From: Saccostrea cucullata
Taxonomy: Eukaryota
Direction: 5' to 3'
Assembly: GCF_032062105.1 (NCBI RefSeq)
Contig: NW_026930562.1
Span: forward strand, 248,001-312,000
Length of the DNA stretch: 64,000 nt
Shown here: piece after piece, positions 35,640 through 37,087 of the stretch
How the letters are laid out: each line of letters opens with the position of its first letter
Position numbering within the stretch: the first letter of the stretch is position 1
Notes under the pieces: model-generated
The model's database searches: none
Seen by the model: the letters and a program-made list of their open reading frames with translations, nothing else
Told to the model about the DNA's origin: nothing
Position numbers and translations under genes: made by a program

Positions 35640-37087
35640 CACAGTGAAGGAGAAATTTCAAGATTACTTGCAACAATATATTCAAGAAGTGGTGTAATAC
35701 TTAAAAAATCAAAGGAACTTTTGAACAATTTGAAATCACAAGATTTTAAAAAAATCAACAGCTTACAAATTAACGACTTTTCAACTTTATAAACGACCAT
35801 TCCCCACGATAAATTAAAGTCCACGCTTTTTGATATCATTGACAGCTGCCTTTTCTATAAAGATGGAACTTGTAAAGATCTTTACTTACCTTGTCATTCG
35901 TCATTTGCAAAATTATTTTGTTAAAAAACATTCTAAGTGTACACACAGGTACTCTGAAGTTTACATAAAAAAGATGCTTGAGTTTCTGATTGACAATATC
36001 GATGTTGTTTTTGGAGACCAGATCTTCCAACAATCTATTGGAATTCCCATGGATACTAATTGCGCTCCGTTATTAGCAGACCTATTTTTGTATTCATATG
36101 AAGCAGAATTTGTGCAAAATCTTATGCGTGAAAAGAGGAAAACACTTGCTGTGGCCTTCAACTGGACATTTAGATACTGTAAATCACTTTTTATTCCCAA
36201 GAACTTAATTTTCGCGCAATTACGCGAGACAATGAGCTCGCGAAATTTTAATTCTCGCGTATAATAGTAATCCTTTGATTTATATAAAGCAATAACCACA
36301 ATTCGTGATTTTTTTTTCGCTTATCAAGAGTCATTGACTTTCGTGAAAATAACGTGTCGCGAAAATTTAGTGATCTACAGTATATCGACGACGTATTTGC
36401 AATTATCAATGGCAATTTCCATTCCTATGTCGATACGATATATCCTGGTGAGCTTGAGATAAAAGATACTATAGTACCACAGAGTCTGACACATCTGTTT
36501 CTTATTTGGATATTTTATTTGAAAAAGACGTTAAAGGTAATCTAACAACCAAGCTGTATGATAAACGTGATGATTTAAACTTTTCTATCGCCAACTTTCC
36601 TTACTTATGCAGCAATATATACCTTCATCACCTGCATACATTTATATATCTCAGTTGATTCGATACGCAAGAGCATGCTCTACGTATGAACATTTTCTAA
36701 AACGAGGTGAATTATTGACAAACAAGTTGATGAAACAAGAATATCAGAAGTCTCGTTTAAAGTCATCATTTCGTAAGTTCTATGGTCGATACAATGACCT
36801 TGTCAGCAAATACAATTTATCATTGAGTCAAATGCTGACCGACGTTTTTCATACTAGTTGCTAGTCCATTATTTATATACTGAGTTGACGACGGATTTTT
36901 CCGTTATTTCCCATTCAATACAAGGAGCACATGGCGGGTGTGACCGGTCGGCAGGGGATGCTCACTCCTCCATGGCACCTGATCCCACCTCTGATGATTT
37001 GTAAGTCAGTGTTTGTTCTGCTGCTATTTTATATTGTTTTATGGACGTTTAGTCTTATATATTGATCGTTATCTCCCTATGTTTCAT
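35640..37087 (+). mobile_element. Best-preserved Penelope-like (Naiad-type) retroelement fragment: RT pseudogene + 3' terminal repeat
   Basis: YSRSGV..LKKSKELL, DFSTL*TTIPHDKLK, FQQSIGIPMDTNCAPLLADLFLYSYE, FR(Y)IDDV, SQLIRYARACS. Reading frame stops at 36864 with no C-terminal GIY-YIG; 3' motif at ~36928-37020. Confidence 0.9.
36177..36380. mobile_element. 204-bp MITE inserted in the RT YIDD codons
   Basis: TA|CTGTAAATCACT...AGTGATCTACAG|TA; removal restores TTT AGA TAT ATC GAC GAC (FRYIDD). Confidence 0.9.

Follow-up and report, generated by a model that had tools for sequence, protein, structure and literature searches.

A covarying pseudoknot and its two palindromes at the 3′ end of Naiad Penelope-like elements, a putative dimer-activated ribozyme

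The 3′ untranslated region (UTR) of a Naiad Penelope-like element (PLE) in the oyster Saccostrea cucullata carries a small RNA fold, about 90 nt in size and strongly supported by covariation, in which a pseudoknot helix is combined with two palindromes predicted to pair between two RNAs. We lean towards the view that the fold is a putative ribozyme which cleaves itself as a dimer and belongs to a class not described so far. The element is known and the RNA fold is undescribed; the role would be of a known kind if the RNA cuts. The focal copy occupies positions 36925-37018 of the plus strand of the window, the 64-kb stretch of contig NW_026930562.1 that was analysed. A sequence-only reading of this DNA had proposed a conserved, structured cis-RNA that recurs about 14 times at the 3′ end of a Penelope-like element, and a single-sequence nhmmer search matched all 14 places that it named, on both strands (E 1.6e-55 to 3e-3). 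The motif is GC-rich within an AT-rich element, as stated there (67% GC in the core against 30-37% in the flanking element sequence), and a 19-mer from the core occurs five times in the window with up to three mismatches, compared with an expectation of 0.01. Copies often retain little or no reverse transcriptase (RT) sequence, again as described, with 7 of the 12 motif-reaching profile matches starting no more than about 135 nt upstream of the core. The window copies are mostly decayed. A covariance model finds nine places with E<0.5, and a high score (59 bits) in the focal copy only. In the focal copy the 3′ sides of P4 and P1 are both partly missing, and its folding does not surpass that of shuffled sequences (z +1.24), compared with a z of −1.44 for a young motif copy.

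The host of the motif is a Naiad PLE, and the motif lies within its 3′ UTR. The decayed 3′ part of the RT open reading frame (ORF), which contains frameshifts and stops, extends on the plus strand from approximately 35670 to 36864 and ends in a TAG stop at 36862-36864. The motif starts 60 nt past this stop codon (36862), on the sense strand, and ends about 70 nt short of the sharp element 3′ end, which is reached through a U-rich tail (37019-37087, plus strand). Outside the motif, the focal RT is split just before YIDD by an insertion at a TA that resembles a MITE, measures about 200 bp and has inverted ends (36177-36380, profile break 36176/36380). Full-length units of about 3.3 kb, with an ORF of 1,027 aa, are present elsewhere in the genome. 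The family has intact ORFs of this length at L419, L423, L427 and L429; in the L429 ORF the GIY-YIG domain (PF01541, residues 159-247) scores above the cut-off, placing it N-terminal to the RT, for which RVT_1 matches at 773-878 below the cut-off. L404/L418 and the four loci above all contain complete Naiad ORFs, in some cases arranged in tandems that are nearly identical (99.8-100%), indicating that the family is young or still active. Inspection by eye of the family translations revealed the CxC motif, the KR-rich block and the DKA variant of DKG that define Naiads (PMC8557442), and the family thus combines a GIY-YIG domain before the RT and these three signatures with 5′ truncation and partial tandems (pLTRs). 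Its 3′ UTR, compared by eye, is near-identical to the Naiad_Sglo consensus in the supplement of PMC8557442. The host is therefore the same element as the Naiad clade of Craig et al. 2021 (PMC8557442), which includes Naiad_Sglo and Naiad_CGi (= Penelope-2_CGi), sharing with it the N-terminal GIY-YIG, CxC, DKA, the C-terminal RT, the 3.3-kb unit, pLTR tandems and heavy 5′ truncation. That paper reports no canonical hammerhead and, in the part consulted, does not describe the 3′ UTR fold, the sequence being printed in the supplement only. The in-frame UGA and SECIS hairpin of selenoprotein Naiads were not found in the family, whose ORFs are open without stops and for which a crude SECIS regex was negative. 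Of 80 element 5′ ends, 65 directly adjoin a preceding 3′ end, so tandem transcripts would carry two motifs.

The motif opens with the 5′ strand of the outer closing stem P1 (36925-36934), a purine and the invariant CGGGUG that would form the 5′ strand of P2 (36935-36940). These are followed by the 10-nt palindrome Pal1 (36941-36950), 1-2 nt and a CAG (the conserved (R)CAG junction, 36951-36954), the 5-nt 5′ strand of P3 (36955-36959) and the conserved GCUYAC(Y) junction (36960-36966). After a further 3-4 nt come the 6-nt palindrome Pal2 (36970-36975), 0-1 nt, CACCYG, the presumed 3′ strand of P2 (36976-36981), the 3′ strand of P3 (36982-36986), the P4 hairpin (36987-37006), which is variable in sequence and length and has two mismatches in the focal copy, and the 3′ strand of P1 (37007-37018), partly decayed here; all are on the plus strand.

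Covariation was assessed in 25 representatives, comprising L313 together with one sequence from each 75% cluster, or three in the case of the largest; L140, which runs into a contig end, and the L202/L203 cluster of decayed copies of the Saccostrea family were left out. In this set 96.4% of cells are paired, with 99 two-sided changes against 28.7 after shuffling and a covariation score of 0.636, compared with 0.173 for shuffled and at most 0.116 for slid controls; the shuffle null ignores the kinship of the representatives, which are related, and the effect is nonetheless large. The 98.1% pairing obtained on a 21-row subset is a flattered figure, as four rows with register problems had been dropped. 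Two-sided change is evident in all five pairs of P3 and all five of Pal1. Watson-Crick cells number 112/125 in Pal1 (half-swap null 48, maximum 72), 104/125 in P3 (null 51) and, in the better of two registers, 67/75 in Pal2 (null 33), while 31 chance pattern matches used as a control gave 44/155, 44/155 and 35/93 for Pal1, P3 and Pal2, respectively. P1 adjoins P4 in 18 of the 25 sequences (null 7.4, maximum 14). When no structure was assumed, 11 of the 13 top column pairs by APC-corrected mutual information (APC-MI; 24 rows) were predicted pairs. P1, P3, P4 and both palindromes are thus kept by compensatory change. A lack of covariation, which the sequence-only reading had named as counting against its proposal, was not observed, and the predicted conserved, structured cis-RNA is supported.

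The status of P2 is different. Its putative pairing with CACCYG shows no two-sided change in the 25 representatives, its letters are fixed by the search pattern, and GGUG could instead pair with YACY, the unconstrained last letter of which is a pyrimidine in 24/24 sequences. P2, if formed, would cross P3 to create a pseudoknot. Three of the five pairings suggested by the sequence-only reading survive, namely the CAUGG/CCGUG outer stem, GGGAU/AUCCC and the ACCUCU/AGAGGU hairpin. The remaining two, UGC..GCA and CAGG/CCUG, have zero covariation and a broken outer pair in 7/21 and 9/21 sequences, respectively, and there is accordingly no sign of the switch between competing helices that had been suggested. 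The expectation of a pseudoknot-like fold that is not a hammerhead was borne out by the covarying 5-bp pseudoknot helix P3 and the lack of hammerhead boxes: CUGANGA is missing from both strands of the family 3′ UTR, as had been observed for the focal element, and CUGANGA and GAAA boxes, in any order, occur in 0/24 representatives within −100/+120 nt (block definitions from the part of PMC10085705 consulted).

The strongest signal comes from the two palindromes, which did not feature among the earlier pairings. Both covary to the centre: the central two letters are complementary in 23/25 rows for Pal1, in all four Watson-Crick types, and in 24/25 for Pal2, and these adjacent central pairs rank third and fourth in APC-MI (24 rows). 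Two RNAs therefore likely dimerise, because adjacent bases cannot pair within one strand. Consistent with this, Pal1 hairpins have predicted energies of 0 to −2.6 kcal/mol, compared with −1.6 to −21.4 for the homoduplexes, and the dimer gain is −15.5 for the family consensus. Pairing between two motifs through Pal1 and Pal2, each forming a predicted intermolecular helix, is likely the simplest reading, and a head-to-tail (pLTR) transcript would supply the partner motif in cis.

The fold extends well beyond the oyster genome. By eye, at least 12 of the 54 Naiad consensuses published share it, and they span four phyla (PMC8557442 supplement); this is a lower bound since a subset of the 3′ ends was inspected. 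The molluscan cases are three oysters, a pearl oyster and an ark clam, and the others are four families of hemichordates, two of Clytia and one toadfish. Those from Clytia and the toadfish came to light once the pattern had been fixed, and fit it; the exception is one Clytia family with a 9-nt spacer. The core pattern also matches at least 122 metagenome loci; the majority come from one assembly, and the matches were therefore clustered before the representatives were chosen. Among the matches listed, 111 are low-GC and structured, with Pal1 fully paired in 68 and P3 in 65, and 11 are high-GC with none fully paired. A same-strand piece of Naiad RT lies just upstream in 32/111 of the former and 0/11 of the latter among the matches listed, many loci having flanks of at most 300 nt. 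Core invariance in the metagenome matches is forced by the search pattern, and unforced support comes from the published consensuses only. RT identity to the Saccostrea family falls to 41% among motif-bearing loci, and an RT tree of 18 such loci has no starred branches and gives no branching order. Seven loci (L082, L096, L128, L131, L140, L151 and L185) display a well-paired motif with no RT match in 300-1,500 nt of flank; they may be very short truncations, Naiads that are more distant, or non-autonomous derivatives. Prokaryote genomes yielded 24 pattern matches, 23 of them GC-rich and unstructured. The remaining one, L313 (RAYO01000111.1), a 407-bp contig in a bacterial genome, matches a published bivalve Naiad end and is likely contamination. 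The single match in viral contigs is unstructured. Searches against Rfam returned two chance matches for the whole window and one for the motif, and no family. A literature search of openly available full texts produced no title or abstract describing the motif, and the text matches inspected in the HRIMA motif supplement were unrelated to it.

To our knowledge only about ten classes of natural self-cleaving ribozyme have been described, and new ones are rare. Neither Rfam searches of the window and the motif nor motif patterns matched a known catalytic core. For twister, the P4 loop regex was negative and there was no Rfam match on window or motif. An HDV-like ribozyme likewise has no Rfam match in either and differs in helix order, its topology being a nested double pseudoknot with the 3′ strand of P2 after P4. 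The hatchet arrangement (P1-P4, a conserved loop L2 and a cut 5′ of P1) was not found in the motif, nor was an Rfam match, and the secondary structure of hatchet as described in the sections of PMC6561176 consulted has no pseudoknot. A parallel exists with the dimer-dependent type-I PLE hammerheads, which occupy the same pLTR place (PMC4209133, PMC6765202, consulted in part). As in the minimal PLE hammerheads, a palindrome is stable only between two copies, and the tandem provides the partner. In contrast to these, the motif has no CUGANGA/GAAA, and possesses two palindromes, a pseudoknot and other invariant letters. Pistol (PMC4604425, PMC6795133, PMC6154101, each consulted in part) offers a local similarity: A-G-[P3a]-G-C resembles A32-G33-[pseudoknot]-G40-C41, and the pseudoknot partner strand directly follows another helix. 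The A-G-[5 nt]-G-C arrangement, matching the purine32-G33 and G40-C41 of pistol, is found in all representatives but is fixed by the search pattern. The motif differs from pistol in having 5 rather than 6 nt between the G's and U in place of G42, and it lacks the P2/P3 three-way junction with a 2-nt cleavage linker; there is no Rfam match, and mutual information reveals no P2/P3-type helices. GCU(C/U)A with a facing AG recalls loop L1 of twister-sister and TS-like ribozymes, with possible C8-G40 and U9-A39 pairs (PMC11620745, in the part consulted). Unlike in twister-sister, a single pseudoknot strand of 5 nt connects the two strands, which are not flanked by P1/P2 helices, GCNAG is missing, and a C follows the A, a change that leaves the LINE-1 ribozyme almost inactive (PMC11620745). 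The pistol and twister-sister resemblances are weak, resting on few letters, and membership of both classes fails.

By eye, 3′ ends of other Naiads, from mussels, clams, a box jellyfish and a ctenophore, contain twister-like motifs, with a palindrome before a UAA-like step when set against the Twister-P5 consensus. Such motifs sit at the same 3′ UTR place in Naiad_Mgal, Bpla, Mphi, Mmer, Scon, Naiad-1_Movir and Mley among the published consensuses inspected, and at L077 and L080. In Naiad_Amil and Naiad_Plae, GAAA precedes CUGAUGA in a permuted hammerhead-like arrangement (by eye, PMC8557442 supplement S5), a box order missed by a canonical-order search. In the consensuses inspected these motifs share the position after the RT stop, and the twister-like ones a palindrome; in sequence and fold they are unrelated to the motif described here, and they are without Rfam confirmation. 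The Rfam twister models applied to four metagenome loci with twister-like stretches gave at best 11.7 bits and an E of 7.7 (L077). In the Saccostrea genome both Rfam Twister-P5, for which the control was silent too, and a pattern search found none; a twister-like 18-mer matched 21 viral contigs, and 0/15 of those scanned had an Rfam twister at the match. An unrelated fold that has the same dimer logic, the same slot and invariant unpaired letters is likely to be another ribozyme.

In the mechanism that we envisage, Pal1-Pal1 and Pal2-Pal2 helices would form between the two motifs of a tandem transcript, P2 would cross P3, and the two invariant junctions, CAG and GCUYAC, would together build the active site. 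GCUYAC is the candidate catalytic strand and, by a loose analogy with twister-sister, the GCUY/A step (36963/36964) a candidate cut site. Tandem transcripts would be trimmed in this way, a role suggested for the hammerheads of other Penelope elements, and the reaction may be slow or require the protein of the element. In other PLEs, the hammerheads of the pLTR have a palindromic stem III, function as dimers and show low activity (PMC4209133, PMC6765202, in the parts consulted). Genomic and RNA ends display no trace of cutting in the data analysed. The 5′ borders of pLTRs do not pile up: in a set of 65, which includes some duplicates, 40 run through the motif, 16 are scattered inside it and 9 lie after it. 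The 5′ truncation points in 1.2 Mb have no peak in the motif, and three poly(A) RNA-seq runs (unstranded, fragmented) no pile-up of read ends there. RNA depth is near zero across the 5′ part of the element, and the reads therefore probably stem from truncated copies embedded in host transcripts. A read joint from 3310 to 20 is explained by a reference cut inside a direct repeat and does not point to circular RNA. The absent pile-ups weigh little, because the Anolis PLE hammerhead, which cuts when the protein is present, has the same negatives: RNA-seq ends are missing at its cut site, and insertion in vitro proceeds without it (PMC11167929, in the part consulted).

The chief alternative, which we regard as possible though distinctly less probable than self-cleavage, is that the motif is a non-catalytic dimerisation or recognition signal, in which Pal1 and Pal2 would pair RNAs while the Naiad RT/endonuclease binds the invariant core, so that template jumps and head-to-tail copies are favoured. 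Such a signal would explain all of the covariation and the genomic copies that run through the motif intact; the invariant, non-covarying letters suit protein contact, and a related PLE protein is a predicted dimer (PMC11167929, in the part consulted). Against it, the sister Naiads inspected swap in unrelated folds that by eye look like ribozymes, which is hard to reconcile with a fixed RT-binding site, the RNA needed by the Anolis PLE for its RT lies within the first 172 nt of the ORF (PMC11167929), and here about 70 nt separate the motif from the element 3′ end. A role in mRNA stability or translation, as a nuclease-blocking pseudoknot or a translation enhancer regulated by dimerisation, is improbable. 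A compact, P1-closed pseudoknot in a 3′ UTR that becomes the 5′ leader in tandem transcripts would suit it, but two palindromes perfect to the centre are not in themselves required, there is no SECIS-like pattern, and the intact ORFs lack an in-frame stop. Still less credible is action of the palindromes as DNA, in a cruciform or an endonuclease site. Perfect palindromes are typical DNA features; however, the 25 representatives contain 23 different Pal1 sequences, unlike a protein site, the sense-strand helices P2, P3 and Pal1 include G-U pairs, and a pseudoknot requires a single strand.

The abundance of the motif has a simpler origin. The core pattern has 5,647 exact matches in the 1.17-Gb genome, compared with none for the reversed control, and 84 profile matches cover the core in 1.2 Mb sampled from nine large contigs, which extrapolates to roughly 80,000 copies genome-wide; copy density in the window is two to three times that of the sample. 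No other motif-bearing family was found in the genome, 11 matches being mutated copies of the main one. In the 1.2-Mb sample, 15-19 copies cover position −690, and the number grows gradually to 87-97 over the motif and tail, the tail being covered as highly as the motif. This steady climb towards the 3′ end shows that motif abundance reflects plain 5′ truncation, an outcome that the sequence-only reading had named beforehand as counting against a function. Inserted copies, moreover, decay neutrally, the core diverging by 0.146 and the flanks by 0.143-0.180; as the core decays as fast as its flanks, selection acts on source lineages only. A neutral GC-rich 3′ end that is abundant through truncation only, with which both the coverage and the divergence agree, is scarcely tenable, since these facts concern dead copies and compensatory changes between families cannot arise neutrally.

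Naiads are reported to do well in the absence of canonical hammerheads, an observation read as a hint that hammerheads may be dispensable passengers. If several unrelated ribozymes that depend on dimers occupy one slot at the 3′ ends of Naiads, dimer-gated RNA processing would instead be a conserved need of PLEs. Even without cutting, the motif would constitute an undescribed module for predicted RNA dimerisation that is conserved in four animal phyla.

Elsewhere in the window, a 344-aa open frame at 48206-49240 (plus strand) ends in C-terminal C2H2 zinc fingers and resembles what we take to be Snail/Scratch-family transcription factors. On the minus strand, a leucine-rich-repeat open frame follows a hydrophobic stretch at 56823-57782, and a 280-aa open frame lies at 58171-59013.
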